From: a virus
Taxonomy: Duplodnaviria; Caudoviricetes
IMG/VR virus record: IMGVR_UViG_3300012971_000044
Location: 1-35,670 of that record
Direction: 5' to 3' (one strand)
DNA length: 35,670 bases
The notes under the pieces were generated by a model. It had not been told where the DNA came from. It saw nothing but the letters and a program-made list of their open reading frames with translations, and ran no database searches. Made by a program: the position numbers and the translations under genes. Of this stretch, positions 18,611 through 35,670 are shown one piece after another (within the stretch, counting starts at the first letter, position 1; each line of letters begins with the position of its first letter).

Positions 18611-18784
18611 CTATCTTATCACCTTCTTTCCTATAAGGTTTTTCTCGCGATTGACGAGCATGGGCTTGGTGTATCTACAATTCTCCCGTTTACACCAAGC
18701 ATAATCATCTACTGTCCAAGGCGTTACATCAGTTCTGATGCCCCACCTATGAAACCCTAACTTGCAGAGTATATGCCCAATCAT
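18611..18784 (-). CDS. Small Cys/His protein
   Basis: MIGHILCKLGFHRW...CKRENC; start 18784 by ATGA overlap. Confidence 0.65.
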   Translation of the reverse strand: MIGHILCKLGFHRWGIRTDVTPWTVDDYAWCKRENCRYTKPMLVNREKNLIGKKVIR

Positions 18785-19708: not shown

Positions 19709-22197
19709 GCGTACTCACTCATGTGTCCCCAATCGTGTCCGATTGATAGGTCTGCTGTATATGGGAAGTCCCAACCTAGCGACTTCTTTGGTGCAAGCTG
19801 CATTAACTCTAGAACCTTCTCAGCTACCTCAGTCGCGTACTTCTTCTTGACGTTGATGAGGATAGAATCGTGGACAGTTACGCGAGGCTGCGCGAACTGC
19901 CACATATCGGATTCTACCAACCAGTCCACAAGATCACACAATGCCCAGTTGGTGATGTTGGCTGCAATGTTCTGGGGCTTGAAGTTGATGAATTGTTTGA
20001 CAAGGTGATCACGTGCGGATTCATCAGCGGGTATGACATAGCAGCGTCTTTTGTGGCCGAAGGGAGATTGTATCTCTCCTTTGGTAAGACACTCATTCTC
20101 TATCTCCTTCGTCCAAGCCCAAACGTCAGGAAAACGATCCCACCAGAAGTCAATGTATTCTTGCGCTTCCTTCTGGGGCATATGGTATAGTTGAGCAAAA
20201 CTGTATGCACTTTGCCAGTAGGCGACACCGAAGTTGATGTTCTTCGCTCTAACGTACTGCTCATACGTGTAGTCCTCTCCATAGAACTGAGCCGCTACTT
20301 CCTTATGGAGTGATCTATCAGTGTCGAGATAAATGGACTGAAGATTGGTATCTCCTGAGAGTACGGCAATCGTTCTAAGCTCCGCTTGAGATAAGTCTGC
20401 GCTAAGGAATACGCACCCGGAGTCAGGGACAAATGGAGTTCTAATGTTTGGGAGTCCTTCTTTTGGTCTGGTGATGTTTTGGAGATTAGGGCGACTTGAT
20501 GAGAGCCTGCCACTTTCCGTTCCGTGAATCTTAAAGTCAGAGTAAATTCGTCCATTGTAAGCTTTTAACACCAGCCCTTCTAGGTAGTTACCACGCTGCT
20601 TATCGAGAGCCTTGAAGTCATCGTAAAGCTGCGTGACTTGCACTACGCGCTTAGGATGCACGACGGTGGTATCTACCTTGTACGTTCCCGTTTGAAGTAT
20701 CTGCTCACGAACGAACTGATCCGTCGATTGCTTACCTTGTCGCTCAACCTTGGGACGCATCAGTTGATGCTCTAACTTCCACTCGTCGTAATACAGCGTG
20801 TTCATCTGCTTAGGCGAATTGAAGTTGATCGCACGTCCTACCAGACCTTCAACGTCCCTCCGATAAGCTTCAAGTTTGGGCCAGACTTCCGCTTCAAGGA
20901 TATTGCAAGCGGCTTCTGAATCGTAAGCAACACCTTCCAGTTCGATCCTAGCGAGAGCTTCTGAGAGTCGTATGAGCATAAGTCTATACGGCTTATCCCA
21001 AACGTTATCGTTCTTTGCCCTAGCCGCAAGGATTTGGAAAAGACTGATCGTTCCAGCTGTATCAAATCCGTTGTATTCGTAAAGATCAAGCTTTGCCCGT
21101 TTGATAGATCCAGTTGCGCTTTCAAGGAACTGTCCCGTTTTCTTGAAGTGTCTGACAGATTGCGGTTCATATTTAGGCCACCCTAACTCGTCTTTTAGCA
21201 GCCACTCTAGTGAGTGACCACCTGCTCCACTTTCAGGATCACCTGGACGTTCATCCAAGCACCACGAAAGCAGCATACTATCTTCGTCTACTCTTGCCGG
21301 GATTCCATGTGATCTGAGAACTTTAACATCATACTTTCCATTGTGCCAAAGATACGAGGCTTCCGAGGCTTGAAATCCGTAGAGTTCACGAAGATATTGT
21401 AGCCTCCATTCCACATTTCCACAGGGCACAACGCCGAACACCACTGACCGCTCAGGTCTAATACTGAAACCAGCGCATGAGATTCTGCCGGTATGACTCG
21501 GATCTTTAGCTGAATCTCTACTGACTTCGATGTCGGATCCAATGATAACTCCTTTACCGAGGTTTGAGATTTCATTAAGAACCTTCTCAGCCAATTCATT
21601 AGCTTCCTCCAAGTCATCTACCCACTTCACCTTAGGCATTTTAGGCTCAGGTAGCGGATCAATGGCTAGACGAAAATCTCTCACAAGCTCGGGAAATGTA
21701 TGATCGTCACGAAGCACAACAGCGGGATTATTTGTGATAATCACCCGTTGTCTCTTTCCACTCCCGTTCACTCGTTCATGCACGTAGCCGCGATTGGCGC
21801 TAATGTTCGATTCACCTTGAACCGTCCAAGCTGCCTCACGACCACAAGCAATCACGGTGTCACAGTCTTTAATCTCATGTTCAAGACGTGGCTGACAGTG
21901 CATTATAGCCTTAGCAAATCCCTGCTCAGTACCATCTGATTGACAGAGAACTGCATTTGTGGCTAACACGTCATCCCTGGACGTTCCATGAAGCTGTAGT
22001 AAGTGGTCTAATACTCTACCCGACGGGCCTGCAAAGCTTTTGCCGTTTAACCCCTCGTAATAACCGGGTGAGCGACTTACGACCGCTGTACGGGCCTGTG
22101 GTGGCCCTGTGGTGGCTGCAAACGACCTATTGTAGAGCGGGCATCCGTCGCATTCAGCGTATGGTGCCTTAGGTGTGACTTTATTCTTAGCCGACAT
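19705..22197 (-). CDS. Family A DNA polymerase with N-terminal uracil-DNA-glycosylase-like domain and 3'-5' exonuclease
   Basis: UDG-like: CDGCPL, FAGPSGRVLD, TNAVLC, NPAVVLR. Exonuclease: DIE, HNGKYD, YNGFD. Polymerase: TESGRLSS, DLSQAELR, AKNINFG, VHDS. Confidence 0.95.
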   Translation of the reverse strand: MSAKNKVTPKAPYAECDGCPLYNRSFAATTGPPQARTAVVSRSPGYYEGLNGKSFAGPSGRVLDHLLQLHGTSRDDVLATNAVLCQSDGTEQGFAKAIMHCQPRLEHEIKDCDTVIACGREAAWTVQGESNISANRGYVHERVNGSGKRQRVIITNNPAVVLRDDHTFPELVRDFRLAIDPLPEPKMPKVKWVDDLEEANELAEKVLNEISNLGKGVIIGSDIEVSRDSAKDPSHTGRISCAGFSIRPERSVVFGVVPCGNVEWRLQYLRELYGFQASEASYLWHNGKYDVKVLRSHGIPARVDEDSMLLSWCLDERPGDPESGAGGHSLEWLLKDELGWPKYEPQSVRHFKKTGQFLESATGSIKRAKLDLYEYNGFDTAGTISLFQILAARAKNDNVWDKPYRLMLIRLSEALARIELEGVAYDSEAACNILEAEVWPKLEAYRRDVEGLVGRAINFNSPKQMNTLYYDEWKLEHQLMRPKVERQGKQSTDQFVREQILQTGTYKVDTTVVHPKRVVQVTQLYDDFKALDKQRGNYLEGLVLKAYNGRIYSDFKIHGTESGRLSSSRPNLQNITRPKEGLPNIRTPFVPDSGCVFLSADLSQAELRTIAVLSGDTNLQSIYLDTDRSLHKEVAAQFYGEDYTYEQYVRAKNINFGVAYWQSAYSFAQLYHMPQKEAQEYIDFWWDRFPDVWAWTKEIENECLTKGEIQSPFGHKRRCYVIPADESARDHLVKQFINFKPQNIAANITNWALCDLVDWLVESDMWQFAQPRVTVHDSILINVKKKYATEVAEKVLELMQLAPKKSLGWDFPYTADLSIGHDWGHMSEYA

Positions 22198-22971: not shown

Positions 22972-25117
22972 CCCCGCCTCCTGCTGTTTTTGTTTTTTGT
23001 GCCAGTCCACGTTGAACTATCGTAATCAACACATCATCGGCTTGCTTCTGACTAAGCCTAAAACGTGTCATTAAGCGCGACCGCATGATGCCTGGGTTTT
23101 CTTCTATTGTAGAGACAATCTTCTGTAGCTTCTTCTCTGCGGCTCCAACACCAGCGTGCATGATTAGATCAACTGAGTTAGGCGCCCATCGTTGGACATA
23201 GTACGCAGCGTTGGCTACGTCGTCAGAGTTGATCGTTATGGTATTTTTCTTGCTAGGATGCTGTCTTGAAGCTCCTAGCAATACAGCCATTTTGAGAACA
23301 CTATCGGATATGCGCTCAAACGTGGCGAGCGCGGCAGGTCTGCTAGGTTGATAACTAGCAGCTTCGCGCCTCATACCATCTTCTATTGAAGCAGATAGTT
23401 TCCAAGCTCTATCGTCAAGATCAGCGACGATGCGTGGAGATTGCATGACTGTCTGCCCACCGATCTTAGTGGGAACATCAGCAGCGTACAGTTCATACAT
23501 ATCAGCTACTTTATTTCTGAGCGCACTATGCTTATCGAGTATGGTTTGAATTGGCCTCTGCGTATTCCTGATGTTATCGAGATTAGCCTCTCCTGTGACG
23601 ACCAGGAATCTAGGCAGAAAGCCAGAGATTACGTAATCTTCGGTGGTGTTCTCATAGACGTGATCTGTGATACCTCCACAGAACATGATGAATAGCGGAG
23701 AGTTCACCATGATTTCTTCCTTGCGAAGTGTGCGCTTCAATACTTGTGGAGCGTCATACAACTTCGTGAGGAACTCTCGCATACCAGCATGATACTCCTT
23801 CTTGTTGATTGAGGCAAAGAATCCACTTACCTCATCAATGAAGAATACGCTGGTCTTACCAGGACGTTGTTCAAGCGAAGTAACCAAACCTTCTGCTGTA
23901 CCGTCAGTAGCTATGATGGTATCGGTATCAGCCAACATAATCAAGTCCCTAGCCATATCCATAGCTGTCGTCTTGCGAGACAGTGTTGAGTCTCCGAGAA
24001 TCAAGCCATATAGATTAGGCACGATACCACTTGCCTTATGACGCGCTGGCAATCTCACAGAAGTTGAGACTACAGATGAAAGAATCATGAAAGCGGCAAG
24101 TTTGTGGTATTCGGGAACTGCGTCTGTAGCGTCTTGTGCCCAATCGAGATACTCGTCTACAAATGTCTCGCTTGCTGGCTCATCTATGAAGTGTGGCATC
24201 TTCAATGGCTTCCACTCATCAGGGAGATTCATGCCATTACGTGATGCCTGTGCCTTTAGTATCTCTTGCCAAAGATGTTCGTCAGGTCTACCGTCCCGAG
24301 CATACTTATTGCTGGGAGCAGACTTAGCTACGACAAATGTTTCTTCCACTGACATACCGGCAGTTAGACAGATGTGGTGTAGCTTCCACAATATGCTAGA
24401 CCAATCTGCACCATCGTCAGGCTCCTGAGTGTAGGTAGCCTCAAAACGAGTACCACGTAGCTGATTCTGATAGTGATACATAACCTGCTCGACAGTGGGA
24501 AGATCATCGTCTGTAGGGAGTGCAATATCTACTGGTTGCGTAGGAGCCAACAGCTTCTCAAACAGCAGCGGTGGTGCCTTGACTTCTGACGCATGACGTA
24601 GATGTATCAGTTGTGGAGGATCGTGCTTGTAGTTGTACGTCAGTGGTACACGTAGAAGTTGTACCATATCCCACCCTGATGTATCTGAGCCAGTGTGGTA
24701 AGCCAGCCTTCTACTGTATTCCTCAGCTTGTAAGGGGGCGATAGTAACTGACAAACGCCAATAAGCCTGCCAACGTCCCTCGCTACTCTCAACTGAGATA
24801 GGAGGCGTGAAGTTGTCTAACGACCCAGGATCAACGTTATCTAGGTCAGCCCACAGAAACGAGGATTCCAGGCAGTTTTCCTTCTTACGTTCACGTTTGT
24901 TTAGCAGCGACACGCAGAAATAGAGATTGCGCTTGTTCTCATTGACGAGAATAAACTTCTCAATCTCTCGCCAATCACCTGGCCACTCGAAGAACCTCTG
25001 TTTGAATGAAGCTCTTGGTGAAATCATTTCAGTAGTGGCTAAACACAAAAATCCCTGTTGATCTTCAAACAGAAGTTCAAAGAATTTTGCGCGAATCTCT
25101 GATTCACTGGGCTTCAT
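22952..25117 (-). CDS. Primase (RepB-like AEP) fused to a DUF3987-type helicase domain
   Basis: LWADLD, VESSEGRWQAYW and LLRVPLTYNYK in the N-domain; NLYGLILGDSTLSRKTT, IDEVSG and SGFLPRF in the C-domain. Confidence 0.85.
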   Translation of the reverse strand: MKPSESEIRAKFFELLFEDQQGFLCLATTEMISPRASFKQRFFEWPGDWREIEKFILVNENKRNLYFCVSLLNKRERKKENCLESSFLWADLDNVDPGSLDNFTPPISVESSEGRWQAYWRLSVTIAPLQAEEYSRRLAYHTGSDTSGWDMVQLLRVPLTYNYKHDPPQLIHLRHASEVKAPPLLFEKLLAPTQPVDIALPTDDDLPTVEQVMYHYQNQLRGTRFEATYTQEPDDGADWSSILWKLHHICLTAGMSVEETFVVAKSAPSNKYARDGRPDEHLWQEILKAQASRNGMNLPDEWKPLKMPHFIDEPASETFVDEYLDWAQDATDAVPEYHKLAAFMILSSVVSTSVRLPARHKASGIVPNLYGLILGDSTLSRKTTAMDMARDLIMLADTDTIIATDGTAEGLVTSLEQRPGKTSVFFIDEVSGFFASINKKEYHAGMREFLTKLYDAPQVLKRTLRKEEIMVNSPLFIMFCGGITDHVYENTTEDYVISGFLPRFLVVTGEANLDNIRNTQRPIQTILDKHSALRNKVADMYELYAADVPTKIGGQTVMQSPRIVADLDDRAWKLSASIEDGMRREAASYQPSRPAALATFERISDSVLKMAVLLGASRQHPSKKNTITINSDDVANAAYYVQRWAPNSVDLIMHAGVGAAEKKLQKIVSTIEENPGIMRSRLMTRFRLSQKQADDVLITIVQRGLAQKTKTAGGGDAFWPL

Positions 25118-25125
25118 AATAAAAC

Positions 25126-25162
25126 AGGGAAGCTAGGAGGAGGGCACCTGTCTAACTTCCCT
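25126..25162 (-). terminator. Hairpin between the tRNA and the primase gene
   Basis: On the - strand AGGGAAGTTAG/CTAGCTTCCCT (11 bp, one G-U), followed by GTTTTATT. Confidence 0.6.
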
Positions 25163-25164
25163 AA

Positions 25165-25237
25165 TAGGCCCGGTAGGAGTCGAACCTACGACCGTCGCAT
25201 TATGAGTGCGCTGCTCTAACCACTGAGCTACGGGCCT
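25165..25237 (-). tRNA. tRNA with CAT anticodon, probably tRNA-Ile2 (lysidine type); CCA not encoded
   Basis: Acceptor AGGCCCG/CGGGCCT; D arm GCTC-AGTGGTTA-GAGC; anticodon loop CTCATAA; T arm GTAGG-TTCGACT-CCTAC. It lacks the initiator GGG/CCC anticodon stem. Confidence 0.9.
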
Positions 25238-25280
25238 AACCAACCTGTTTACTCTCTCCCTACAGGATTTGTACCTCTAT

Positions 25281-26915
25281 CTACGGATCAACCACCACGA
25301 CACAAGTGTACGTACCGGGCTTCAATCCGTTAGCAGTTACAGTTGCATCCTCGACGTTCCCACTTGGGGAATCACCGATGTTTGCAGGAGTGCTGTCCTT
25401 ACAAGTGATCTGACTCTTAGTGCCACCACTCGCTTCGGACTTCGCCTCAATAGTCAAGTCAGTCAGAGGCGTATCACTTGCAGCGAACGTTTCACCGATA
25501 TACGGATCAGCCGCACAAGTGGTGTTGGTATCCACCGTGACCGAATGACCACTACTGTCATCAATGGAGTATCCAGCAGGTGCAGCAGTTTCCGTTACAG
25601 TGTAACTACCGAATACCAAACCATCAACACAGACGGTTCCATCAGCACCGGAGGTTACACTATTGGAATAGCTACCAGGGCCAGTAATAGAGAACGTGGC
25701 TCCTGCAAGCGCCGTACCCTTGCTAGAAGTCTTACTGATCTTGATAGCACCCAACTGCTGGTTATTGACATACGTACAGGTAATGTCATCACCAGGATTG
25801 ATGTTAGCAGTAACCGTTCTACCGCTAGTGCTAGCATCAGCCGCAGCACCAGTACCCGTACAACTCACACTATCGAATGCGAATCCCGAAGGATCTGCAC
25901 CTTCAGTGACAGTATAAGTACCAGTGTGGAGATTGTCATACACCTGCGTATTACCAGCCGAGTCACCACTGGAGTTACCTGCGTCATTCAAACTGAACGA
26001 TGCACCATCCAATGCTGATCCTGCTGGCCCTGTACCAGTGTAAGTAAACGACTGGTCAAGTCCTCTAGGAGCAGTATGCTTGATGATCGTCAGCTTACCA
26101 CAGTTGCTGAAGTGCAACGACACTGGTGCGATGAAGTCCTTAATCTCAGACGTAAACGAAGTCGAAGAACGTGACTTCACATACGCAGAGTTGAAGGACT
26201 CACAGGAGTTAGGTGGAATGATATTGGCACACGCCATATCAATCGCAGCCTCACCAAACTGTTGTGCGGGACGATTAACAGCAGGGTTGCCACCGAGATT
26301 CTCGGAAACCTGCGCTGCGTTAGTCTGACCCTCAGAACAGCTAGATGAGATAACTCCATCATTCGTCCAGCTACTACCATTCCAGTGGTACTTAGTCAGC
26401 GTCGGAGTATTCGATCCACCCTGGAATGCATAGTTAATGAGTAGATCGTTTACAGTACGAACAAGCAACTTCGGCCCTGGTGTAGTGAGATCAGGCTGTG
26501 CTTTCGCATTGATCTCAAAGTCGAAGTTTACCGTACCCGACTGATTCTCGCGTGACCATGCAAGATACAACATCTGATGACCATTAGCGAGAGTCTCGCC
26601 CGCGATTGCAAAGCGAGCTAGATCGGCCTTTGAGTTAGGAATAGAACCGGAGACAACGGTAGTTGCTACGTTATCTTCCTTTGCACCCTGACCAAAGGAG
26701 TTATCTGTAGTGCCTGTTGGCTTATCTACACCAACAGAAAGATTGGGCGCGTTTACCCAATCGTGATTGCCTGCTGTGTTCACCACGAGGTTTCCATCAT
26801 TTCCCTCGAAGTTTGAACCAGTGAGATTAGCACTCGCACTAGTGACATAGAACACCACAGCAAATACCGCAACTGCTGTGATCGTTGCCAACGACAACCA
26901 ACGTCGTTTACGCAC
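25281..26915 (-). CDS. Secreted protein with SpaA/prealbumin-like (pilin-type) Ig repeats
   Basis: Signal peptide; GKLTIIKHT, GAIKISKTS..LAGATFSI, E-box-like YTVTETAAPAGY; RBS AAGGAGG; no LPxTG anchor. Confidence 0.8.
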   Translation of the reverse strand: MRKRRWLSLATITAVAVFAVVFYVTSASANLTGSNFEGNDGNLVVNTAGNHDWVNAPNLSVGVDKPTGTTDNSFGQGAKEDNVATTVVSGSIPNSKADLARFAIAGETLANGHQMLYLAWSRENQSGTVNFDFEINAKAQPDLTTPGPKLLVRTVNDLLINYAFQGGSNTPTLTKYHWNGSSWTNDGVISSSCSEGQTNAAQVSENLGGNPAVNRPAQQFGEAAIDMACANIIPPNSCESFNSAYVKSRSSTSFTSEIKDFIAPVSLHFSNCGKLTIIKHTAPRGLDQSFTYTGTGPAGSALDGASFSLNDAGNSSGDSAGNTQVYDNLHTGTYTVTEGADPSGFAFDSVSCTGTGAAADASTSGRTVTANINPGDDITCTYVNNQQLGAIKISKTSSKGTALAGATFSITGPGSYSNSVTSGADGTVCVDGLVFGSYTVTETAAPAGYSIDDSSGHSVTVDTNTTCAADPYIGETFAASDTPLTDLTIEAKSEASGGTKSQITCKDSTPANIGDSPSGNVEDATVTANGLKPGTYTCVVVVDP

Positions 26916-27037
26916 AGTACCTCCTTGTGATCCCCCCTGGGATTGAGGTGTGATACTGGGCGAATTAAAATGGGCGCACTACTAAGCCGTGTCATTTAAG
27001 TATCCCGGCGTTAAAAGGAATACCCCACATCATCATC

Positions 27038-27532
27038 TTAGAGTACGCTGTCTCCTGCCGTGACAGCCTCACCAGCAGGCTTCACAGACTTGACAGGATT
27101 GTTATACTCACCTTCGATGATGTTACCCTGACGATCCTTCTTCGGCTCCTTGCCGATAGTCACGACACACGGAGCTTCGATGAAGTTATCGAAGTCAGGA
27201 TCGAACGTCTTGCTTAGCACTTCTTCCTCAGGCACACCAAGAGCGATGAAGAAGCGAGCAAGCATACCCTTCATCTTAGCTGCCTTACCCTTGTCGTAAT
27301 CCTTCGGAGGAATTACGAACTGTACCCACACACGACGGTTCTCGTATTCCTCATCAGTGATCTTAAACTGGCACTTAACGATCGGAGTACCAGCAGGCAT
27401 CTTACCCTCACCACTGAGATTCTTTACTGCATCCATCGTGATTTCTACAACTTCTGCGTTGTAGCGTCCAGGCTCCAAAGGATCAAAGCCTTTCATATCA
27501 GCATCGCTGAGATTCAGCGGCCCTGACATCAC
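27038..27532 (-). CDS. DUF669-like single-stranded DNA-binding protein
   Basis: FDPLEPGRYNAEV...YENRRVW...YNNPVKSV; follows the AAA ATPase. Confidence 0.8.
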   Translation of the reverse strand: MMSGPLNLSDADMKGFDPLEPGRYNAEVVEITMDAVKNLSGEGKMPAGTPIVKCQFKITDEEYENRRVWVQFVIPPKDYDKGKAAKMKGMLARFFIALGVPEEEVLSKTFDPDFDNFIEAPCVVTIGKEPKKDRQGNIIEGEYNNPVKSVKPAGEAVTAGDSVL

Positions 27533-28362
27533 TCACCTTCTTTCTTCTCGTCTTTAGTCTCAGGCTCTAGTTTCACGCCTTCTACGATGTCCCACATTGA
27601 AGTGAGACTTGGGTTCTCTAGTGAGTTACCGAGAACCTTTGTCCTATCTTTACCTAGGACACGATCCGAACCTACAACTTGTAGCGTTCGTGTTATATCA
27701 CCTCCCCGATTTCGGGCACGATAGTAGCCCACAACGTCAAAGAAACCTGGGACTTCGCGCACAAGTTTGCCAGCAAAGCCCGGACGATACTTGTCAGGTT
27801 CGTTGTCCCGTTGATCTATACCCAAAGCACCTGTGCAAATGAAGTGGCATGGCAAGTCTTTGAAAGCGCGGGTGATGAGGCGGATATGATTTCTGACAAT
27901 TCCCCACTCTCTAGGCGAGGGAACGTCAATATCAACACGATCCGGGTTACGGTTATACGCATCTTTCATCACCTTCCGCATATCAAGATCAGCTAGCTCA
28001 GTCAATGAATCAATGCCCATTGACTTCCACGGCAGTTTCCCGTTTTCTATGCTATGGTACAGCATATTGTATTTGTCCTCAACCTCAGAGATTGAGCGTA
28101 CCTTGATGATGTCGATACCTGGCTTATCACGCAACGTCATCATGCCACCCTCAACGTCGAAGATAAGCATAGGTCGCAAACGCTCATCATCCTCTGCTGT
28201 ACCAAGAAAATACGTCTTACCTACACCCGGTTCACCGTAGAGAAATATGTTCATCCACTCGACAATCTCCACAGGTGATGTAACTTGCAGTTTCGCACGT
28301 AGCTCGTCACTACCAGCATCTTTCACCTGTGCGGGTTTTCTAGTTCGAGCCGCTGTTGCCAT
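27529..28362 (-). CDS. Sak4-like AAA ATPase (recombinase)
   Basis: FLYGEPGVGKT, FDVEGG, IDSLTE, FFDVVGY, KDR; ATG 28362 after GGAGG. Confidence 0.87.
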   Translation of the reverse strand: MATAARTRKPAQVKDAGSDELRAKLQVTSPVEIVEWMNIFLYGEPGVGKTYFLGTAEDDERLRPMLIFDVEGGMMTLRDKPGIDIIKVRSISEVEDKYNMLYHSIENGKLPWKSMGIDSLTELADLDMRKVMKDAYNRNPDRVDIDVPSPREWGIVRNHIRLITRAFKDLPCHFICTGALGIDQRDNEPDKYRPGFAGKLVREVPGFFDVVGYYRARNRGGDITRTLQVVGSDRVLGKDRTKVLGNSLENPSLTSMWDIVEGVKLEPETKDEKKEGE

Positions 28363-28624
28363 TCGTTTCCTCCACTCTACCCGCAACTTGAACGTGGTAT
28401 CCGTTGTCCACACAAATCTTTGAGAGTTGATACATAGCGTGTGGAGTGCAGAGAGCTATCCCGTTTACAGTATACATGGCTTTAGCGATGTTACTAGGAC
28501 AGAACGTACAATAGCCAGGACGTGTGAGTACGCCAAGCGGCCCTTTGTGTTCAAGTGATTGCGTCGTCCTGTTCTGTATCGCTTTCAGGCGTTGTATCGT
28601 CTTGTCGTCCAGCGGCACTATCAT
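28340..28624 (-). CDS. Hypothetical Zn-binding protein
   Basis: CTFC...CTPH; start preceded by AAGAGGGG. Confidence 0.6.
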   Translation of the reverse strand: MIVPLDDKTIQRLKAIQNRTTQSLEHKGPLGVLTRPGYCTFCPSNIAKAMYTVNGIALCTPHAMYQLSKICVDNGYHVQVAGRVEETNGNSGSN

Positions 28625-28817
28625 CCCCTTCTTCCACTAGTTTACCATCCTCGTAGATTGGCACATCGCTGAATATCTTTCTTGATGTTGCTATCGCATC
28701 GGCGTGATTTTGATAGCCTTCTGAGCTAGACACAATCTCGTTGTTTCCAGCGATACGATGGAAATACCACAAACCTTCTACACCCCTGAAAATCTCCACT
28801 CTTTCACCAGTAGGCAT
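28551..28817 (-). CDS. YegP/DUF1508-like protein
   Basis: EIFRGVEGLWYFHRIAGNNEIVSSSEGYQNHADA fits the family pattern. Confidence 0.75.
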   Translation of the reverse strand: MPTGERVEIFRGVEGLWYFHRIAGNNEIVSSSEGYQNHADAIATSRKIFSDVPIYEDGKLVEEGDDSAAGRQDDTTPESDTEQDDAIT

Positions 28818-30083
28818 TTACCTGTCCTTTGCGTGGTGGTAGTTGTTCTCTACGAGAAACTCCCAATCTTCGCCAGCCTCCATAGCCATGCAAGGTGGGC
28901 GGAATTGACAGTTGATGCAATCCCACGACTTTCTAAGATTGGGATATATCCTGATGTCAGGATTGAGCATATCAAGTGCTTCAAGATATATTCTCTCACC
29001 TGCCGATCGAAGTTGGTGCCTGTTACGACGGACGAGTTTACGTACAAAGAACTGCTCGTCTCCAACTTCTCTAACCCAATCGAAATATCCCTGGTGTTTC
29101 TCGTCAAGATCCATGTAAGATATGTCTGCGTCACGCATCCATTCCTGCAACATCTCAAACGTGGTCGATTCGTTGTTTCTATCGACACTGAACATACCTC
29201 CACGAACTGTCGTAGGAGGTTTTGGTGAAGCTTTACGAAGAACGTTGTAGATCAGTTCTTCCATAGGTTCACCCGCATGAGGCAAGTCATAGTAGGATGC
29301 TTCTATCTCAGCAGCCCACAAATACGTAGTAACTTGCTCGTCACTCTCTAGCTTCAAGTCAAGCTCGGAATCCATCTTGTCTGCGGTCTTATGATCTATC
29401 AAGCCAAGCCTACCATTAGGCTTAGCATAGAACGCATCAATACGACCGCGACTATGGACTTCCAACATCTTGCCATAGTTGGGTGACTGTTCTCTTACGT
29501 CTCTAGCTTTGAGGATACAGTCATTCTCGTAGTCCCATATAGGAACAGAGAAATCATGCTCGGCTACGATAACCTCGAAGCCGTCATACTCATTAGCGAA
29601 ACGTTTGTAGTTCTCCAACATACCGATACCAAGCTCACGCATCTCAGTAAACTCATACTCGTCAGCATCGGGAAGTATCTCCTGCAAACCTCGCACCAGA
29701 AACACGTCCAATCCCGGCGCATTATCTGCGTCGGGCACCCTTATGGGTGATAGATCGTAAACCTTATCCAACCAATCAGCGGTAACTGTACCGCCCATCC
29801 ATTGAATATCAAACCATGTCTTGAAAGCCTCTACAGGATCACGACGTAAGCCTGGAGTATACCAGCATTCCAGTCCGTAGTGAATACCTGTACCTAAAAA
29901 GAACGGGTGGTATACACCACCAACGTCAGCCTTAATAGTTAGGCTTTGTCTTGCTGGACTAGACCAATCCCACTTACGTCTACAAGCTTTGAATGTCGCC
30001 CTATCCGAGTTGTGAATAGGGATGACATCATACTTGCTAGGGATTTCTGGCGGAGTCCAGACTGGTGCTATTTCGGTGGAAAT
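28818..30083 (-). CDS. Cas4/AddB-like PD-(D/E)xK exonuclease (about 421 aa, non-canonical ATT start)
   Basis: The frame is open 95 codons upstream of the track's ATG 29798 and holds HNSDRATFKACRRKW and LGTGIHYGLE. Core GRIDAF...IDHKT; C-terminal CINCQFRPPC. Confidence 0.85.
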   Translation of the reverse strand: MSTEIAPVWTPPEIPSKYDVIPIHNSDRATFKACRRKWDWSSPARQSLTIKADVGGVYHPFFLGTGIHYGLECWYTPGLRRDPVEAFKTWFDIQWMGGTVTADWLDKVYDLSPIRVPDADNAPGLDVFLVRGLQEILPDADEYEFTEMRELGIGMLENYKRFANEYDGFEVIVAEHDFSVPIWDYENDCILKARDVREQSPNYGKMLEVHSRGRIDAFYAKPNGRLGLIDHKTADKMDSELDLKLESDEQVTTYLWAAEIEASYYDLPHAGEPMEELIYNVLRKASPKPPTTVRGGMFSVDRNNESTTFEMLQEWMRDADISYMDLDEKHQGYFDWVREVGDEQFFVRKLVRRNRHQLRSAGERIYLEALDMLNPDIRIYPNLRKSWDCINCQFRPPCMAMEAGEDWEFLVENNYHHAKDR

Positions 30084-30138
30084 AAAAACTTCTCCCGTTC
30101 CTGCGATTTCCCGCTAATTGGCGGGACGTGAATGGACT

Positions 30139-30167
30139 ACCCTATCACACGCGGGAAGCCGTGTCAA
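30139..30167 (-). promoter_or_regulatory. Sigma70/HrdB-type promoter for the recombination operon
   Basis: TTGACA-17 nt-TAGGGT with an extended -10 TG. Confidence 0.75.
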
Positions 30168-30352
30168 GCACTAGTTTTCTCAAAAGCTACGACTCTGCTA
30201 GGATCTGGTGAAACGGCATCAAGTAGAGCATGAGTAGCTTCGGCATCTGACTCATACGTACCGTACAAGTGCCAGCCAACGAATACCTGGAAATCAGTCT
30301 TACCAGTGATCGGATCGTAATGCGGCTGAGTATAGTTACCGCCCAACTTCAT
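30164..30352 (-). CDS. Hypothetical protein
   Basis: 62 aa, RBS GGGAGG. Confidence 0.6.
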   Translation of the reverse strand: MKLGGNYTQPHYDPITGKTDFQVFVGWHLYGTYESDAEATHALLDAVSPDPSRVVAFEKTSA

Positions 30353-30354
30353 AG

Positions 30355-30537
30355 CTACGCCCTCCCTGCTAGCTTACGAAACATATTGCGCCACTTCTGC
30401 TCACTGTGAATTGCCGCCTTTAACATCTTACGTGCCAACGTATCGTTATGGCGCAACTTCCACAATGCAGCGATCGTGCCTTTAGCCTCGGGTGTTAGAC
30501 CTGACGGCTTAACGTTTAATGGAGCCTGATTCGACAC
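30355..30537 (-). CDS. Hypothetical basic protein
   Basis: 60 aa, GTG start, fills the gap between neighbours. Confidence 0.5.
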   Translation of the reverse strand: MSNQAPLNVKPSGLTPEAKGTIAALWKLRHNDTLARKMLKAAIHSEQKWRNMFRKLAGRA

Positions 30538-30673
30538 CGTACAGTAGCCTCATCTGTTTGTTAGCGGTTTCTTTGTCAGGCATACAACCGTGAATTTTAC
30601 CAGTGTCAGTATTGACAACGGCATACGGTTTGCCTGCTGGACACTTGCTAGATTTCATTACCTTGTAAGGCAT
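30509..30673 (-). CDS. 54-aa phage protein (missed by the ORF track)
   Basis: MPYKVMKSSKCPAGKPYAVVNTDTGKIHGCMPDKETANKQMRLLYGVESGSIKR*. Resembles a recurrent small phage family; RBS AAGGCGGTG. Confidence 0.75.
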   Translation of the reverse strand: MPYKVMKSSKCPAGKPYAVVNTDTGKIHGCMPDKETANKQMRLLYGVESGSIKR

Positions 30674-30692
30674 CATCACCGCCTTAACGATT

Positions 30693-30735
30693 ATCGGGGG
30701 AGTAGCTGGCTAGGTGACTACTCCCCCGATTTTTT
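30693..30735. terminator. 13-bp perfect hairpin
   Basis: ATCGGGGGAGTAG/CTACTCCCCCGAT; the T run lies on the + strand. Confidence 0.65.
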
Positions 30736-30804
30736 AGTTACTTACGAGTGCCCGCCGATAACACCAGATCCAAGCCGCAGTTTCTTTGTCATTCAACCAC
30801 CCCC

Positions 30805-31005
30805 TCAACAAACACAATGGTTGGTAAGCTCAAGAAAGTATGCGCTAGGTTCTTTCTCGTTGGAATATCGAACAGAAGTCCAACCCCGCATAGTACCAGC
30901 AGGTTCCAATCTCACGACTAGTTTGACACCACGCGCTCCTGCACGTCGTCGCATAGACTGTAACGTACAGAAACTACACCTAGTCAGTTCACTCAAAGGA
31001 ATCAC
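30805..31005 (-). CDS. Hypothetical Cys-containing protein
   Basis: CSFC...HCVC; overlaps the upstream gene end. Confidence 0.55.
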   Translation of the reverse strand: MIPLSELTRCSFCTLQSMRRRAGARGVKLVVRLEPAGTMRGWTSVRYSNEKEPSAYFLELTNHCVC

Positions 31006-31186
31006 TTTCCATCCATCTTGTGTAGGCTGCTACGTGTTCAGGATATACCTGACTGATGATCGTGCGGTTACGTTCATCAGCTTTAGCGATAAGCCTCAGA
31101 AGCTGTGCGCTAAAGTTACTACCACGACCAGCCATTATCTGAGCAACGTGCAATCTATCGTATTCAGACAGTTTACCAAAGATCAC
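30989..31186 (-). CDS. Hypothetical phage protein
   Basis: GSNFSAQLLRLIAKADERN...YPE; GTGA overlap. Confidence 0.65.
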   Translation of the reverse strand: MIFGKLSEYDRLHVAQIMAGRGSNFSAQLLRLIAKADERNRTIISQVYPEHVAAYTRWMESDSFE

Positions 31187-31407
31187 GAGTAATCTTCCAT
31201 GTGTCGCTTGGCTACCATATCAGCCAGCTTCACGATCAGCCTGCCACCAAGCGAACCAGCAGCAACACTGATAGTTCTCTGACCTCTGCCACTTACGGCA
31301 TAGAACAGTTGAATGGCGTGACGCCGATCGCGTGGAATGGTCAGATGTATGACATTGATGTCTTTGCCTACAACCTTACGATGTCGCATAGCAGGGTCAG
31401 GATACAT
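31183..31407 (-). CDS. Hypothetical protein
   Basis: 74 aa; RBS region AAACGGGAGAAAAATG. Confidence 0.65.
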   Translation of the reverse strand: MYPDPAMRHRKVVGKDINVIHLTIPRDRRHAIQLFYAVSGRGQRTISVAAGSLGGRLIVKLADMVAKRHMEDYS

Positions 31408-31618
31408 TTTTCTCCCGTTTCTTTTGTTCTATCACTTCGATCAATCCTGTGCGGCGGTTATGTTGAAAGAGGCGCCAAGCAAGATAACGTGTAACTTCTC
31501 CACGATTATTGATGTTGCCTTTGAATCCATCATTGAGAACGAGAGTCTTAACCTCATGCCATTCTAGCATCCCTGACATGAAGTTAGCCTCATCTACGTT
31601 ATCTTGCTTAGTCGCCAT
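31397..31618 (-). CDS. Hypothetical protein
   Basis: MATKQDN..., ATG 31618 after GGAG, overlapping the helicase stop. Confidence 0.6.
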   Translation of the reverse strand: MATKQDNVDEANFMSGMLEWHEVKTLVLNDGFKGNINNRGEVTRYLAWRLFQHNRRTGLIEVIEQKKREKNVS

Positions 31619-33311
31619 TTTGCAGCTCCGCATCGTCAGTCTCGTCAGCACCGAAGATTGACTTGAACCAGCTACCCTTCTCTTGCACCGTACCCAAGAC
31701 ACGATAGTCCACTGTGCCTTCTGCACGAATGTAGATTAGCTGTGATGCTCCGGTCTGACCAGGACGATAGATACGACCGATAGCCTGCTTGTTCTTAGCT
31801 GGCGACCAATCTTGATCTAGGAAGATAGCCCTGTGAGCCTTAGACAAGTTGATAGACTCACTACCAACCCCCAACGTACAGAGAAACACCTGATAGTCAC
31901 CAGTCCACCACTTCTCATGCCATAGATCGTAACGCTGCGTCTCACTCATATCCGCAGTTAGATGCAGATACGTGATACCAGCTTTCTCCAATCGCTTCTT
32001 GAGCAACTGTAGTGGCTGCTTGAAGCAGGAGAATACGACCACTTGATCCTTACGCTCACTATCCCACTCTAGCGACTCGATGATTTCCATAGCCGCATCA
32101 AGCTTTGAGCTAGGCTCAGTTAGTTCGACTTCAATCACACGACGTTCTTCCTTATCAGACCACTCATCACGCAGAACCTTAGGAGTTGCCACACTGATCT
32201 GCCTCAGTCTAGTTAGCGCAGACAGAACAGTAGGACTATGCAACGGAACACCCTGAGCATCCAACGCAGACAGATACTTCACGATACCGTCATACATCTT
32301 CTGCTGTGCAGGGCTGAGACTTACAGGAACGACAGTCTCAATCGGTTCTGTAATGTCAGGGAAGCATTCAATCATCGTGCGACGAATGCCGACACGTCTG
32401 ACAAGTGCCTTAAACTCATCTTCCTTGTCAGGCTTGATACCCACGATCTTCTTGTAACCTCCTACGAAGTCCTGTTCGCAGAAGTAATCGCGGAATGCCC
32501 AGTAACCAGTCCCACCCACGATTTCAGCATGAGGACTGTTCTTACGACCACTGTACGTGAAGTCAAGCAGACTCCAGATTTCAGCGGGATTGTTCACGAA
32601 TCCAGTTCCAGTCATCACAAACTTGTGAGCAGACTTTAGCTTCTTGATGTTGCGAGTCCACTGACTGTCAGGATTCTTGATCCTGTGTGCCTCATCCACG
32701 AAGATAGCATCCCAATGCTTAGTCATCAGAATCTCGTTTAGTGGGTGAGTCATCTCATACGTACCATCTTCTTCACCAGTCTCAGGATCGACGTGCATCA
32801 CGTTACGCATCATAGGCTTACCCTTACTGTCAAGCCTAGGCTCGCCATTCTCCCTAAAGACCTGTTCTTGAACAGGCTGTGGTAGACACTGACGATTGGT
32901 GAAGCAGTTGTAGTGAGCAAGCACTACAACCGGACGGAAGTAGAGAGGATCAGGAAGCTCAACCTTCTTGTTGTATCGGGTAATCACCTTACCACCCAAT
33001 ACCATCTGGAATCCTTTAGCTGTAGCAACGAACGTATCCCACTCAGGTAGGACTTCGTGCAACGACTCCAGATATGCTCCCTTACCAGTCTTAGTGGTAA
33101 TCACCAAGACGCGAGGATTAGGGATATGCCTTAGCTTTGTCTCCCAAAGCCACTCAGCAGTAGTAGTTTTGAAAGTACCCATTTCATTCCATAGGGCACC
33201 TTCATCCTGCTCTGCCAGAATCCCAATGTCATTGATTTGGAACTCTGCCTTCTGAAACTTGCCAGAGGGCTTAGGCTTCAAGATTGGCTGTCTTGATAGA
33301 CTTGCCTCCAA
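31608..33311 (-). CDS. SNF2-family DNA helicase
   Basis: NEMGTFKT, VDEAHRIKN, MTGT, SESINL, QAIGRIYRPGQ. Confidence 0.92.
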   Translation of the reverse strand: MEASLSRQPILKPKPSGKFQKAEFQINDIGILAEQDEGALWNEMGTFKTTTAEWLWETKLRHIPNPRVLVITTKTGKGAYLESLHEVLPEWDTFVATAKGFQMVLGGKVITRYNKKVELPDPLYFRPVVVLAHYNCFTNRQCLPQPVQEQVFRENGEPRLDSKGKPMMRNVMHVDPETGEEDGTYEMTHPLNEILMTKHWDAIFVDEAHRIKNPDSQWTRNIKKLKSAHKFVMTGTGFVNNPAEIWSLLDFTYSGRKNSPHAEIVGGTGYWAFRDYFCEQDFVGGYKKIVGIKPDKEDEFKALVRRVGIRRTMIECFPDITEPIETVVPVSLSPAQQKMYDGIVKYLSALDAQGVPLHSPTVLSALTRLRQISVATPKVLRDEWSDKEERRVIEVELTEPSSKLDAAMEIIESLEWDSERKDQVVVFSCFKQPLQLLKKRLEKAGITYLHLTADMSETQRYDLWHEKWWTGDYQVFLCTLGVGSESINLSKAHRAIFLDQDWSPAKNKQAIGRIYRPGQTGASQLIYIRAEGTVDYRVLGTVQEKGSWFKSIFGADETDDAELQNGD

Positions 33312-33745
33312 CGTTCACCATCCAATCTCCCGTTAGGATATATGATTGTGTGTGGTACTTTACGCTTTCGCGCAAACCTGTACGTTGCCCAAGTACCTGA
33401 ACGTAATACCTCAGTATCATTCTTTGGGCCAACTATGATATAATCGCTTGCTCGCACAATGTCCTGATTACGAACAGAGTAGGTCTGTGGTGTTTCCATT
33501 AGATCACCACGACATAACGCACGATGCTTACTCTGGACAGGTGGGAATATGCGAATCTTGTAGCCGATACCCTTAGCTACGTCGTGACAGATTGCATCCC
33601 AACCTTCACAATCACCATGTGCGAGCCAGCACTCACCCTTAGGAGAGTACCGATTGTAAATCTTTTGGAGTAGGACACCAAGTTGTCTAGCCTGTGCGGG
33701 TGTTATCTTCTGGACGCTTCGCGTACCAGTCACACCTACCGTTAT
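33278..33745 (-). CDS. SLOG/DprA-like Rossmann-fold protein (possible ATA start)
   Basis: (I)TVGVTGTR, HGDCEGWD, RNQDIV, RSGTWAT. Confidence 0.75.
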   Translation of the reverse strand: MTVGVTGTRSVQKITPAQARQLGVLLQKIYNRYSPKGECWLAHGDCEGWDAICHDVAKGIGYKIRIFPPVQSKHRALCRGDLMETPQTYSVRNQDIVRASDYIIVGPKNDTEVLRSGTWATYRFARKRKVPHTIIYPNGRLDGERWRQVYQDSQS

Positions 33746-34131
33746 TGCGACAACTCGCTTAGCACTATCGCTAGTGCTGTCGTCTTGGTGTGTCCTTTCT
33801 TCTGATACAGGTATATGTAGCGACGACTGTATTTCCTACACTCCTTTGTCTTACGACAAAACACAGACGCGCGTGGGCCGTGTTTGATAACACCGCCGCA
33901 TACTACACACGTAGGTCTGTGCCCGTTTTTGGGATCAGCAAGAATGCTAATCGCTTGTGATACATTATCTGCTTGTCCCGTTACTATATAGTGTTCTAGC
34001 GAGTTAGCATTTATCGCTAGATACCCTACGTGTGGATTGTTAAAGACGACTGGCTTACTACAGTTCTCACACCAGCCTGTAAACTCGTCTAGTTGATCTA
34101 CTGACGTACCACAGTTCGGACATACTTCCAT
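33742..34131 (-). CDS. Multi-CxxC zinc-finger protein
   Basis: CPNC, CENC, CVVC, C..C. ATG 34131 is preferred because TTG 34164 lies inside a hairpin. Confidence 0.65.
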   Translation of the reverse strand: MEVCPNCGTSVDQLDEFTGWCENCSKPVVFNNPHVGYLAINANSLEHYIVTGQADNVSQAISILADPKNGHRPTCVVCGGVIKHGPRASVFCRKTKECRKYSRRYIYLYQKKGHTKTTALAIVLSELSQ

Positions 34132-34143
34132 CTGTGATAACTG

Positions 34144-34245
34144 TGGCGGGTAGGGGGAGCGCAAATGCCGCAGCTTCTGCGCTACTCCCCTAATCCGCCA
34201 GGGTCAGCATTTCGGTGGAAACGGGAGAAACCACCGAGCGCGACG
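34144..34245 (-). ncRNA. Putative two-hairpin small RNA or leader RNA
   Basis: Begins just after promoter 34251-34279. Hairpin 1: TCGGTGG/CCACCGA with loop TTTCTCCCGTTT. Hairpin 2 (34144-34200): TGGCGG, TAGGGG and AGCGCAGA stems. Confidence 0.55.
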
Positions 34246-34453
34246 AACTGATGGTAGCACAAAAGTTCGTCTGCGTCAAGGGGATATTCGTGACACTTTC
34301 ACGACTTACGTTATCAGTGTCAAGTCTCCACCACCAACGAAGCTCACCATCAACGATAAGCTCCACAGGAATATAGCCACGATCGAATAGACTATCTACA
34401 TAGTCCTCGCCCCAAGTGGCTATTTCCTTCTTTATGTATTCTTCTGCTGTCAT
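34190..34453 (-). CDS. Hypothetical protein
   Basis: RBS AAGGGGG; the N-terminal half looks protein-like, the tail overlaps the promoter and RNA element. Confidence 0.6.
   Translation of the reverse strand: MTAEEYIKKEIATWGEDYVDSLFDRGYIPVELIVDGELRWWWRLDTDNVSRESVTNIPLTQTNFCATISSSRSVVSPVSTEMLTLAD
34251..34279 (-). promoter_or_regulatory. Sigma70-type promoter overlapped by an 8-bp inverted repeat
   Basis: TTGACG-17 nt-TACCAT with TG extension. GACGAACT (34242-34249) and AGTTCGTC (34264-34271) flank the -10. Confidence 0.7.
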
Positions 34454-34469
34454 ATTAACAGCCCCCTTA

Positions 34470-34669
34470 GTAGAACGGTCATGTTATTGAGATACGCATT
34501 CTTCCTGATAAGAGGTAACGTAACTCATCCGGCCCGTTCTACACTTTATGGGTGTTGTGTCCCATACTGATACTCACTATTACTTAGGTTCCTATGCCTC
34601 ATGGGGAGAATAGGAGAATAGTGAGTATCAGTATGAGAGTCACGCAGGTGCCCTACGTGACTCCCATAC
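34470..34669 (-). ncRNA. Highly structured intergenic element (three long hairpins)
   Basis: Stems 34631-34669 (18 bp, two G-U on the - strand), 34563-34581/34617-34635 (19 bp perfect) and 34470-34478/34534-34542. Confidence 0.55.
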
Positions 34670-34684
34670 CTTAACTGAGTTAGA

Positions 34685-34984
34685 TCACTCAGCCTCAGCA
34701 CCGACAAGCTCGCGCACCATCGCGGAGTTGATGAGGAACACATCATCACCATCCACGATAACGTCGATCATATCGGCACCATCAGGAGCTTCCTTCTTAT
34801 CCTTCGCATTCTCGAAGCCCTGCTTGATAGTCGTAGCCTTCTTATCCTTCAACTGAGGCCACGTTTCCTTCACGTCCACGCCGTTCTCACCAGACTCCAG
34901 AAGCTCTGCGAGAAAAGCAGTATACAGACCCTTCGTGCGCCGCTTGGCATAGATTGCGGCGATCTTATCACTATCGAGTGCCAT
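34685..34984 (-). CDS. Hypothetical protein
   Basis: ATG 34984 after AAAGGAAG; an alternative TTG 35071 follows AACGGGAGG. Confidence 0.7.
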   Translation of the reverse strand: MALDSDKIAAIYAKRRTKGLYTAFLAELLESGENGVDVKETWPQLKDKKATTIKQGFENAKDKKEAPDGADMIDVIVDGDDVFLINSAMVRELVGAEAE

Positions 34985-35042
34985 GAACTTCCTTTCGTTT
35001 TTGTTGTCGTTGTGTGTTGCTTGTGGTTCTGTAGCTGGTTTG

Positions 35043-35522
35043 CTACTTGGCTTTCGTCTTTGACGTGCCAATCCTTCTTACCTCCCGTTCTAGTCGAGTT
35101 ATACGTAACTCGAAGTCTTGCAATACCTTCGCTACGTCTAATCCTCCCTTCTCTAGCGACTCTCTCCAGGCTGCAAGAGACTTGACACGCCTCTCAACCT
35201 CTACCACCATTGTAGCAGACGAGGTGCGTTCTGTCAAGTGTTCCGGCGGGAGAAGATCACCCGCTGGCAATTCTCCCGTTATCTCGATTATGGTAGGTTG
35301 GTGTCTATTGCCAACTTGAATGATACGTACAACATCATACGCTAGCAGTAACCGTTTGATCCGCGTATAGCTTGCGTTACTCGCTCCCGTTTGTTTAAAC
35401 AGGTCGCCGATCTTACCAGTGAATACCTGCTGACCATGCTCATTCATTTCGGACTGATCCCGCAGTAGCTCAAACATCATACGAGCCTGAGCAAGCCAAG
35501 CAGGTTCAGTTGCGTTAGCCAC
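35043..35522 (-). CDS. Putative winged-HTH protein with C-terminal coiled coil
   Basis: IGDLFKQTGASNASYTRIKRLL...VVRIIQVG resembles a winged HTH; the C-terminus is heptad-like. Confidence 0.55.
   Translation of the reverse strand: MANATEPAWLAQARMMFELLRDQSEMNEHGQQVFTGKIGDLFKQTGASNASYTRIKRLLLAYDVVRIIQVGNRHQPTIIEITGELPAGDLLPPEHLTERTSSATMVVEVERRVKSLAAWRESLEKGGLDVAKVLQDFELRITRLEREVRRIGTSKTKAK
35209..35237 (-). promoter_or_regulatory. Near-consensus sigma70-type promoter inside a CDS
   Basis: TTGACA-17 nt-TACAAT with TG extension. Confidence 0.75.
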
Positions 35523-35670
35523 TTGCTTCTAGCGTAGTTTGGTCAGGGTTGCTAGCAAGCCAGCCGTCGAGGAAACAATAGCGACACATGAATACCCCGT
35601 TTACCTCGCTTACCATAATGCCGCTTTGTCGAGGATCTACACAGTTAGGATTCTCACAACGAAACAACTC
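35515..35670 (-). CDS. 3' end of a Zn-finger protein (partial)
   Basis: ELFRCENPNC...MCRYCFLDGW...SG* open from the window edge. Confidence 0.6.
   Translation of the reverse strand, partial: ELFRCENPNCVDPRQSGIMVSEVNGVFMCRYCFLDGWLASNPDQTTLEASG

Follow-up and report, generated by a model that had tools for sequence, protein, structure and literature searches.

RsaE and its relatives, the C-rich-loop small RNAs of Firmicutes, use an unpaired UCCC-type motif as a short seed for the Shine-Dalgarno sequences of many targets, and the unpaired UCCC loop of RsaE was shown to block translation initiation (PMC2790875). The RNA predicted here in a 35.7-kb fragment of a soil phage (the whole stretch of DNA that was analysed, referred to as the window; CheckV 59%) resembles them in having a short unpaired loop motif and conserved complementarity to the Shine-Dalgarno regions of many putative targets. 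As described in that source, RsaE is encoded on the host chromosome and acts on ordinary ribosome-binding sites (RBSs), whereas the predicted RNA is phage-encoded, has a single loop and faces a private tag that changes together with the loop. A fixed C/U-rich loop on a highly variable stem is also found in the cuckoo RNA family of Alphaproteobacteria (PMC4615179). Cuckoo RNAs are described there as two to four hairpins, each with CCUCCUCCC, whereas here one hairpin with CUCCCGUU is joined to an unrelated long hairpin; two to four adjacent hairpins with CCUCCUCCC are not present in the window RNA.

Over-conserved start-associated sequences (SAS) of phages have been without a partner since 2011, and their role is still called unknown in the 2024 Adephagia paper (PMC11373665). 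In cluster K mycobacteriophages they are oriented motifs at the RBS position of non-structural genes only (PMC3203893; PMC11373665). The SAS of cluster EF Microbacterium phages likewise occupy the RBS position of non-structural genes (PMC7302621). The authors who described SAS noted that four K1 genomes contain a single inverted copy, and did not decide between an RNA and a protein partner (PMC3203893). The tag of the phages studied here behaves like a SAS: it is oriented, lies a few nucleotides before early starts and is conserved beyond the needs of 16S rRNA pairing. This is an analogy only. The cluster K consensus is the 13-bp GGGATAGGAGCCC, the tag is the 8-nt AACGGGAG and the phages are unrelated.

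The C4 RNA of phages P1 and P7 is a small leader RNA that pairs with the phage's own transcripts. The P4 CI RNA and the IsrK RNA of Gifsy-1 are also small phage RNAs from the leader of a replication-side operon, and they resemble the predicted RNA in pairing with transcripts of their own phage (PMC4825925). As far as these accounts go, CI, IsrK and C4 are lysogeny-maintaining RNAs with one or two target sites within a single transcript, whereas 4–24 tags are present on the early strand of each genome here. All five near-complete relatives of the window are devoid of a tyrosine integrase (PF00589), and none was detected among 72 ORFs scanned; these phages may have a non-integrating carrier state. 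Class-wide control of early mRNAs via the GGAG of the RBS is known from T4 RegB, which is a protein endonuclease, whereas the specificity factor here would be the predicted RNA (PMC1702504). No description of a tag-and-loop pair or of an RNA partner of SAS was found in the literature searched, in which subscription papers, figures and supplements were mostly out of reach, and the parts covered of a 2025 review of phage small RNAs mention no such tag-and-loop pair (PMC12197685). The predicted RNA is uncatalogued and would be a new kind of variant among anti-Shine-Dalgarno small RNAs; the comparative evidence that links it to its putative targets is unusually direct.

The predicted RNA and its genomic context

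Tail-sheath, baseplate and lysis genes are located on the plus strand of the window. The minus strand encodes the helicase, an exonuclease, a Sak4-like protein, SSB, primase, polymerase and resolvase. A tRNA-Met (CAT) gene (25164–25238, minus strand) lies directly upstream of the primase. The replication module also contains a gene (25281–26915, minus strand) for a 544-residue protein whose N-terminus resembles a signal peptide and whose domains are SpaA prealbumin-like (pilin-type). There are 387 homologues of the exonuclease at E ≤ 1e-20, many of them from contigs of 55–62 kb. None of the 15 best helicase matches listed is a cultured relative with more than 30% identity. A helicase search of prokaryote genomes yielded only two short contigs from unrelated bins, and no host was assigned.

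The predicted RNA is preceded by a sigma70-type promoter (TTGACG-17-TACCAT with an extended −10 TG; 34251–34279, minus strand). The letters of the −35 and extended −10 elements are invariant in 18 of 18 aligned homologues. The pattern alone is no better than chance, with 12 sites in positions 24000–35670 compared with 14.8 expected. The RNA itself (34144–34244, minus strand) would comprise about 100 nt with two hairpins, both ends being predicted. The 101-nt sequence folds with −53 kcal/mol (z = −4.83), a stability reached by none of 200 shuffled sequences.

The core of hairpin 1 (34212–34237, minus strand) consists of a 7-bp stem with arms 34237–34231 and 34218–34212, enclosing the 12-nt loop UUUCUCCCGUUU (34230–34219). 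Within the loop, the seed CUCCCGUU (34220–34227) is the complement of the tag AACGGGAG. It is identical in all 18 distinct close loci, in which the stem arms differ freely. The unpaired probability of the seed is 0.86 in the window RNA and 0.67 on average across 32 loci. Both sides of the stem have changed in seven of seven pairs. An ungapped alignment of the 18 close loci has 81% of its cells paired, compared with 49.7% after shuffling and at most 59.5% when the alignment is slid; four rows with a 13-nt loop are out of register and lower the value of 81%.

Related loci were collected by exonuclease and helicase similarity, and 32 of them contain the same unit: a TTGAC-17-TG.TA promoter, a hairpin with a C-rich anti-RBS loop about 15–30 nt past the −10 box and then a second, long hairpin. 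Fold stability favours the promoter strand in 29 of the 32 loci, and G-U pairs account for 60 of 417 pairs. For comparison, a loose promoter-plus-loop pattern was found at 119 loci, seven in the family and the others by chance, of which 95 distinct ones served as the control set. The mean energy of the hairpin is −16.4 kcal/mol in the family and −5.7 kcal/mol in these controls. At least seven enclosing pairs are present in 29 of 32 family members and in 48 of 95 controls; energy is thus the discriminator and pair number a poor one. The exact hairpin pattern had no match in the viral contigs searched. In Rfam 15 the window has matches only in its tRNA region at E ≤ 1, and six homologous loci gave only two sub-threshold chance matches. 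Judged by this comparison, from which promoter, hairpins and strand are read, the predicted element is a conserved, structured, strand-specific RNA element in no catalogued family.

Hairpin 2 (34144–34200, minus strand) is a long stem which often spans the start region of the next gene and is likely a terminator or processing site. It has at least 15 pairs in all 32 loci and a mean energy of −34.7 kcal/mol. A T-rich tail follows it in just 8 of the 32 loci, so that a discrete 3' end of the RNA is not assured. We infer that the RNA is transcribed from the promoter by the host polymerase and ends or is cut at hairpin 2. The preliminary description had proposed a promoter-driven hairpin RNA with a loop antisense to RBSs of the same phage. 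This proposal is now backed by conservation, by covariation within the stem and by loop–tag covariation between clades, and the promoter, arms, loop and two shared oligomers (a 13-mer and a 9-mer, see below) that it listed all proved correct.

Directly behind the RNA lies a gene for a cysteine-rich protein with two predicted zinc sites (33742–34164, minus strand; start TTG 34164 or ATG 34131). In many close loci its likely start codons are contained in hairpin 2. The conserved protein has 130 residues, a basic C-terminal helix and 18 homologues. It has no Pfam or PHROG match, and its model (pLDDT 86) matched nothing in PDB or BFVD at E ≤ 0.001. The gene is absent beside the RNA in seven of eight loci of the UUG/UGG clade. 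An upstream ORF (34190–34453, minus strand) reads through the promoter and hairpin 1. Its homologues do so in 9 of 12 loci, in differing frames; ribosomes on this ORF would melt the loop on read-through transcripts. The gap upstream of this ORF contains an inverted repeat with 22-nt arms (95%; 34560–34638), with several changes and insertions in run X5.

The tag at early ribosome-binding sites and its joint change with the loop

The tag AACGGGAG occurs eight times on the early strand of the window, compared with a mean of 0.58 and a maximum of 4 in 200 third-order Markov simulations. Two of these sites had been named in the preliminary description, which missed the other six and the family-wide pattern. 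In 399 kb from 29 loci, over-representation among 7-mers is strongest for AACGGGA, AAACGGG and ACGGGAG (z scores of 31.7, 26.1 and 25.2; next-ranked 13.0). A start codon (counted for ORFs of at least 40 residues) lies 2–14 nt downstream of 112 of 177 copies of ACGGGAG, with a peak at 4–8 nt. The corresponding values are 2 of 22 for its complement and about 20–45% for one-letter variants. The remaining 65 of the 177 copies are away from any start, and only three or four of the eight early-strand copies in the window sit at one. Among the RBSs of five near-complete genomes, the 8-mer is present at 32 on the early strand and at a single one on the late strand, compared with 31 early and 17 late copies of the canonical RBS motif. 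Many early genes retain canonical RBSs.

Predicted duplexes of the loop in the window reach −15 to −18 kcal/mol at four early start regions, and −11.1 kcal/mol or weaker at the other 40 starts, including all 20 late ones. Inspection of the letters flanking the 8-nt seed and those flanking the tag revealed no match.

The best duplex (−17.8 kcal/mol) is formed with the RBS of gene 31183–31407, where the tag (31412–31419, minus strand) places the ATG 4 nt past GGGAG. The 12/12 match of the loop to this site (31409–31420) and the 9-mer common to the RNA and the start of this gene are both present as first described. This tag is kept in the variant L001 despite a different upstream sequence: L001 has a different gene between helicase and gene 31407 (31410–31633 in the window; L001:1735–1985). 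Run X5 has a joint at 31410–31633. Nearly as strong (−17.7 kcal/mol) is the duplex with the RBS of the exonuclease, whose tag (30092–30099, minus strand) lies 8 nt before an ATT codon, with the same spacing in the relatives L030, L031 and L070. The 10/10 match of the loop at this RBS (30090–30099) is likewise found. For ORF 34685–35071 the tag (35082–35089, minus strand) lies 10 nt before a TTG, the true start being uncertain. The helicase tag (33327–33334, minus strand) is 15 nt before a TTG (33311), a nearer ATG being out of frame; in the relatives L007, L013, L051 and L127 the tag directly precedes the helicase ATG. The out-of-frame ATG opens a 16-codon frame that overlaps the helicase TTG (33271–33334, minus strand), as it does in L001. 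A further copy is internal to ORF 35043–35522 (35273–35280, minus strand), and three on the early (minus) strand have no clear start beside them (35384–35391, 21761–21768 and 18683–18690). A host with an unusual 16S tail was ruled out as the origin of the tag, as canonical motifs serve the late genes and different clades have different tags.

More distant phages (helicases 39–45% identical) contain the same promoter-two-hairpin unit with the seeds CUCCCGUA, CUCCCUUG, CUCCCUGG, CUCCGUUA and CUCCCAAA. All loci with these other seeds except L243 were recovered by a promoter scan that ignored RBS motifs but required CUCC. A matrix of 32 loci contains 119 RBS hits of the cognate tag, compared with 30 for the five non-cognate classes taken together. 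Of the 30 loci with any hit, 26 have the cognate tag as their strict best, and the true labelling ranks first of 720 permutations. Loop and tag have thus changed jointly between clades. The 5' letters of the tag are AAC in the window and TAC, CAA or CCA in other classes; GGAG is kept in every class. As the matched classes correspond to about four well-supported clades in a quick helicase tree, the independent evidence amounts to about four matched states and not 32.

Exceptions are L282, in which the RNA is present and no cognate tag was found in 17 kb, L234 and L227, with none at an RBS, and L068 with a tie. The near-identical L267 and L268 were each counted. L287 (a copy of the L288 RNA) was dropped, as were promoter-scan hits in L237, L247 and L258 and a second hit in L214, in which CUCC is not enclosed by a stem. 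Seventeen loci in which the RNA was not detected have at most one hit per class, and L017, nested in the main clade, has neither RNA nor tag. Some loci scored as lacking the RNA may hold variants invisible to the scan, as in L256 and L247. L256 has a long hairpin with UCCUCCUU in its loop (L256:8950-9040), and the commonest RBS motif there is the canonical AAGGAGG. A matching promoter was not found for this hairpin, which is possibly a variant aimed at ordinary RBSs. L247 has an RBS motif of its own, ACAGGAG, with six of six copies at starts; no antisense hairpin was found in 19 kb of this locus.

Inverted SAS of cluster K phages were compared with this arrangement. Of 15 cluster K stretches, five have an inverted SAS as part of a long hairpin, which exposes it in its loop and varies in its stem: Anaya (L292:29840-29905), Adephagia (L293:6655-6720), Validus, Peanam and Amelie (the last three in L296, L297 and L299). 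The Adephagia loop is CCUCCUAUCC and is located in the gap from gene 92 to gene 93, the reported origin of late transcription (PMC11373665). This position would suit a shut-off of the early genes late in infection. In the remaining 10 of the 15 stretches, such a loop is missing or altered (altered in Bryler, DarthP, Shandong1 and others), and SAS persist in Bryler, DarthP, Pixie and TM4 despite this. AnnaSerena has ten SAS and no inverted copy. SAS therefore do not generally need such an RNA, and the extension of a loop-RNA partner to all SAS failed for Bryler, DarthP and AnnaSerena.

The AUU start of the exonuclease

The PD-(D/E)XK exonuclease gene (28818–30083, minus strand; phrog_1218, E = 1e-35) begins with an ATT codon (30083–30081), the position at which the N-termini of its homologues begin. 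As proposed earlier, ATT is the start: it is conserved in four lineages, the window and L030, L031 and L070 (79–85% protein identity; short contigs and possibly not independent samples). In the latter three the ATT lies 8 nt past the tag with a TTGACA promoter upstream, letters of the spacer unrelated and no alternative in-frame start. The corresponding promoter-like site of the window is TTGACA-17-TAGGGT (30139–30167, minus strand), and TTGACA is similarly placed in the three relatives. An assembly error was ruled out, as the ATT is identical in L001 and in contigs of three of four sequencing runs, one of which may be the source sample; the fourth has no coverage. Gene callers truncate the exonuclease, P0001 and P0008 being short by about 95 residues.

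A weak 6-bp hairpin, TATTTC-NACY-GAAATA, covers the ATT (30069–30084, minus strand; L030:618-633, L031:692-707 and L070:440-455). It has a variable tetraloop and −2.6 to −4.6 kcal/mol in the four ATT lineages, and is kept in all of them although just 57–59% of other synonymous codons are identical. In the window it contains the 13-mer shared with the RNA (30070–30082 and 34209–34221).

This 13-mer had led to the idea of a clamp, in which the 5' arm of hairpin 1 pairs with CCACCGA after loop binding and loops out the exonuclease AUU. Some features of the window favour it. The 13-mer is the longest of 122 cognate arm–target matches, the non-cognate maximum being 9 in 2074 comparisons, and the clamp is the minimum-energy co-fold of the RNA and the exonuclease message (−9.5 kcal/mol net, compared with −4.8, −5.4 and −1.9 kcal/mol for the other three). 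It would also disrupt the hairpin over the AUU. Across the family, however, arm–target runs of at least 7 pairs are as rare in cognate comparisons (1 of 122) as in non-cognate ones (16 of 2074). CCACCGA is not retained in L030, L031 and L070, in which third codon positions are free to vary. Furthermore, the 13-mer is partly self-complementary, which lowers its information, and the clamp pairing is seen in 1 of 18 genomes. A pattern search for RNAs of the ATT-clade genomes found only the L001 contig and none of the RNAs of L030, L031 and L070. We therefore regard the clamp as doubtful; it is possibly an add-on for one target, compatible with repression in trans.

Probable repression of tagged early genes and alternative readings

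With moderate confidence we favour a trans-acting anti-Shine-Dalgarno RNA that represses the tagged early genes. A stable RNA of about 100 nt would be made, and its open C-rich loop likely pairs in trans with the tag over early Shine-Dalgarno sequences, so that ribosome loading would be blocked on these genes as a set. The pairing would amount to 8–12 bp on tagged messages and to about 5–7 bp on late genes with their ordinary AAGGAGG sites. With rising amounts of the RNA, genes for host takeover, recombination and replication would be damped and structural genes left untouched. The exonuclease would likely be kept low in three ways, by its AUU start, the small hairpin over it and the tag.

The position of the tag at RBSs, its early-strand bias and its joint change with the loop come from comparison of the loci; we infer the in vivo pairing and its repressive sign. 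As the tag keeps GGAG, the host ribosome can still read it. GGAG stands at normal spacing in all tag classes, and the site of ribosome binding should therefore be hidden by pairing. Covariation, on the other hand, is evidence of pairing and silent on its sign. Timing is the main difficulty for repression: an RNA behind a host-type promoter inside the early region is expected alongside its targets, and a delay must be assumed.

An early promoter suits an activator. The RNA could be a positive guide, a second anti-Shine-Dalgarno which joins the ribosome or a phage protein in recruiting messages with the tag and enables initiation at weak starts, among them the AUU of the exonuclease. The tagged genes include ATT and TTG starts, loop–tag covariation is compatible with either sign, and activation of translation through pairing is described for Gifsy-1 IsrK (PMC4825925). 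We nevertheless consider such a guide unlikely, since GGAG at canonical spacing in all tag classes makes an adaptor unneeded and would be masked by the pairing. There is also no sequence conservation outside the loop and no conserved partner protein, the cysteine-rich gene being missing beside the RNA in seven of eight UUG/UGG loci.

A helix of 8–12 bp between loop and tag, as in a kissing complex, is short for RNase III. This and the absence of a candidate nuclease tracking with the RNA make it rather improbable that the RNA would guide a nuclease to tagged messages or trigger their cleavage (or protection), as an RNA-guided counterpart of T4 RegB. About a third of the tag copies are away from starts, which would suit cleavage, but amino-acid sequence accounts for some of the internal ones. 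RegB provides the precedent, as it inactivates early mRNAs at GGAG (PMC1702504).

Equally improbable is a cis-acting leader of the replication operon, in which the loop either binds tags further downstream on its own long transcript or responds to tagged RNA by opening hairpin 2 over the start of the next gene. The element does head the helicase operon, in many loci likely start codons of the following gene are buried in hairpin 2, T-rich tails are uncommon and the P4 CI RNA is cut from such a leader (PMC4825925). Many tags, however, lie upstream of the RNA promoter or behind other promoters, and the gene behind the RNA differs from clade to clade.

The inverted copy of the tag, about 17–25 nt downstream of the predicted transcription start, could be the operator of a phage protein for which the tag is a DNA site; this is very improbable, given that the tag has a fixed spacing at RBSs and a strict strand sense, and that the stems covary, are rich in G-U and fold in a strand-specific manner. 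A fusion of ORF 34453 with the exonuclease at the 13-bp repeat, whether through recombination or through joining of RNAs, was proposed earlier, and the repeat is in frame in the window genome. This fusion can practically be dismissed: 15 of 25 joints listed include no such joint, contigs (which drop rare variants) are continuous across both repeat sites, a separate promoter and a tag at constant distance accompany the ATT in four lineages, exonuclease homologues require no extra N-terminus and the read-through frames of the upstream ORF differ between loci.

The predicted RNA is a candidate partner for a start-associated motif, tied to it by joint change across clades, the comparative counterpart of compensatory mutation. 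Phages without tyrosine integrase may thus have a translational switch in which one RNA acts on many genes. The conserved AUU start documented here had been overlooked by gene callers. Five natural matched RNA–tag pairs are usable for orthogonality and synthetic control, and the cultured K1 phages of M. smegmatis are an accessible testing ground. More tentatively, and with doubts as large as those about the clamp, the system may be an RNA-only self-recognition code, in which a clade barcode on early RBSs is read by one RNA that, as a second anti-Shine-Dalgarno, steers ribosomes to the messages of the phage (licensing AUU starts) or excludes superinfecting phages of the same barcode without any protein. 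If true, this code would account for at least part of the start-associated sequences of actinobacteriophages.
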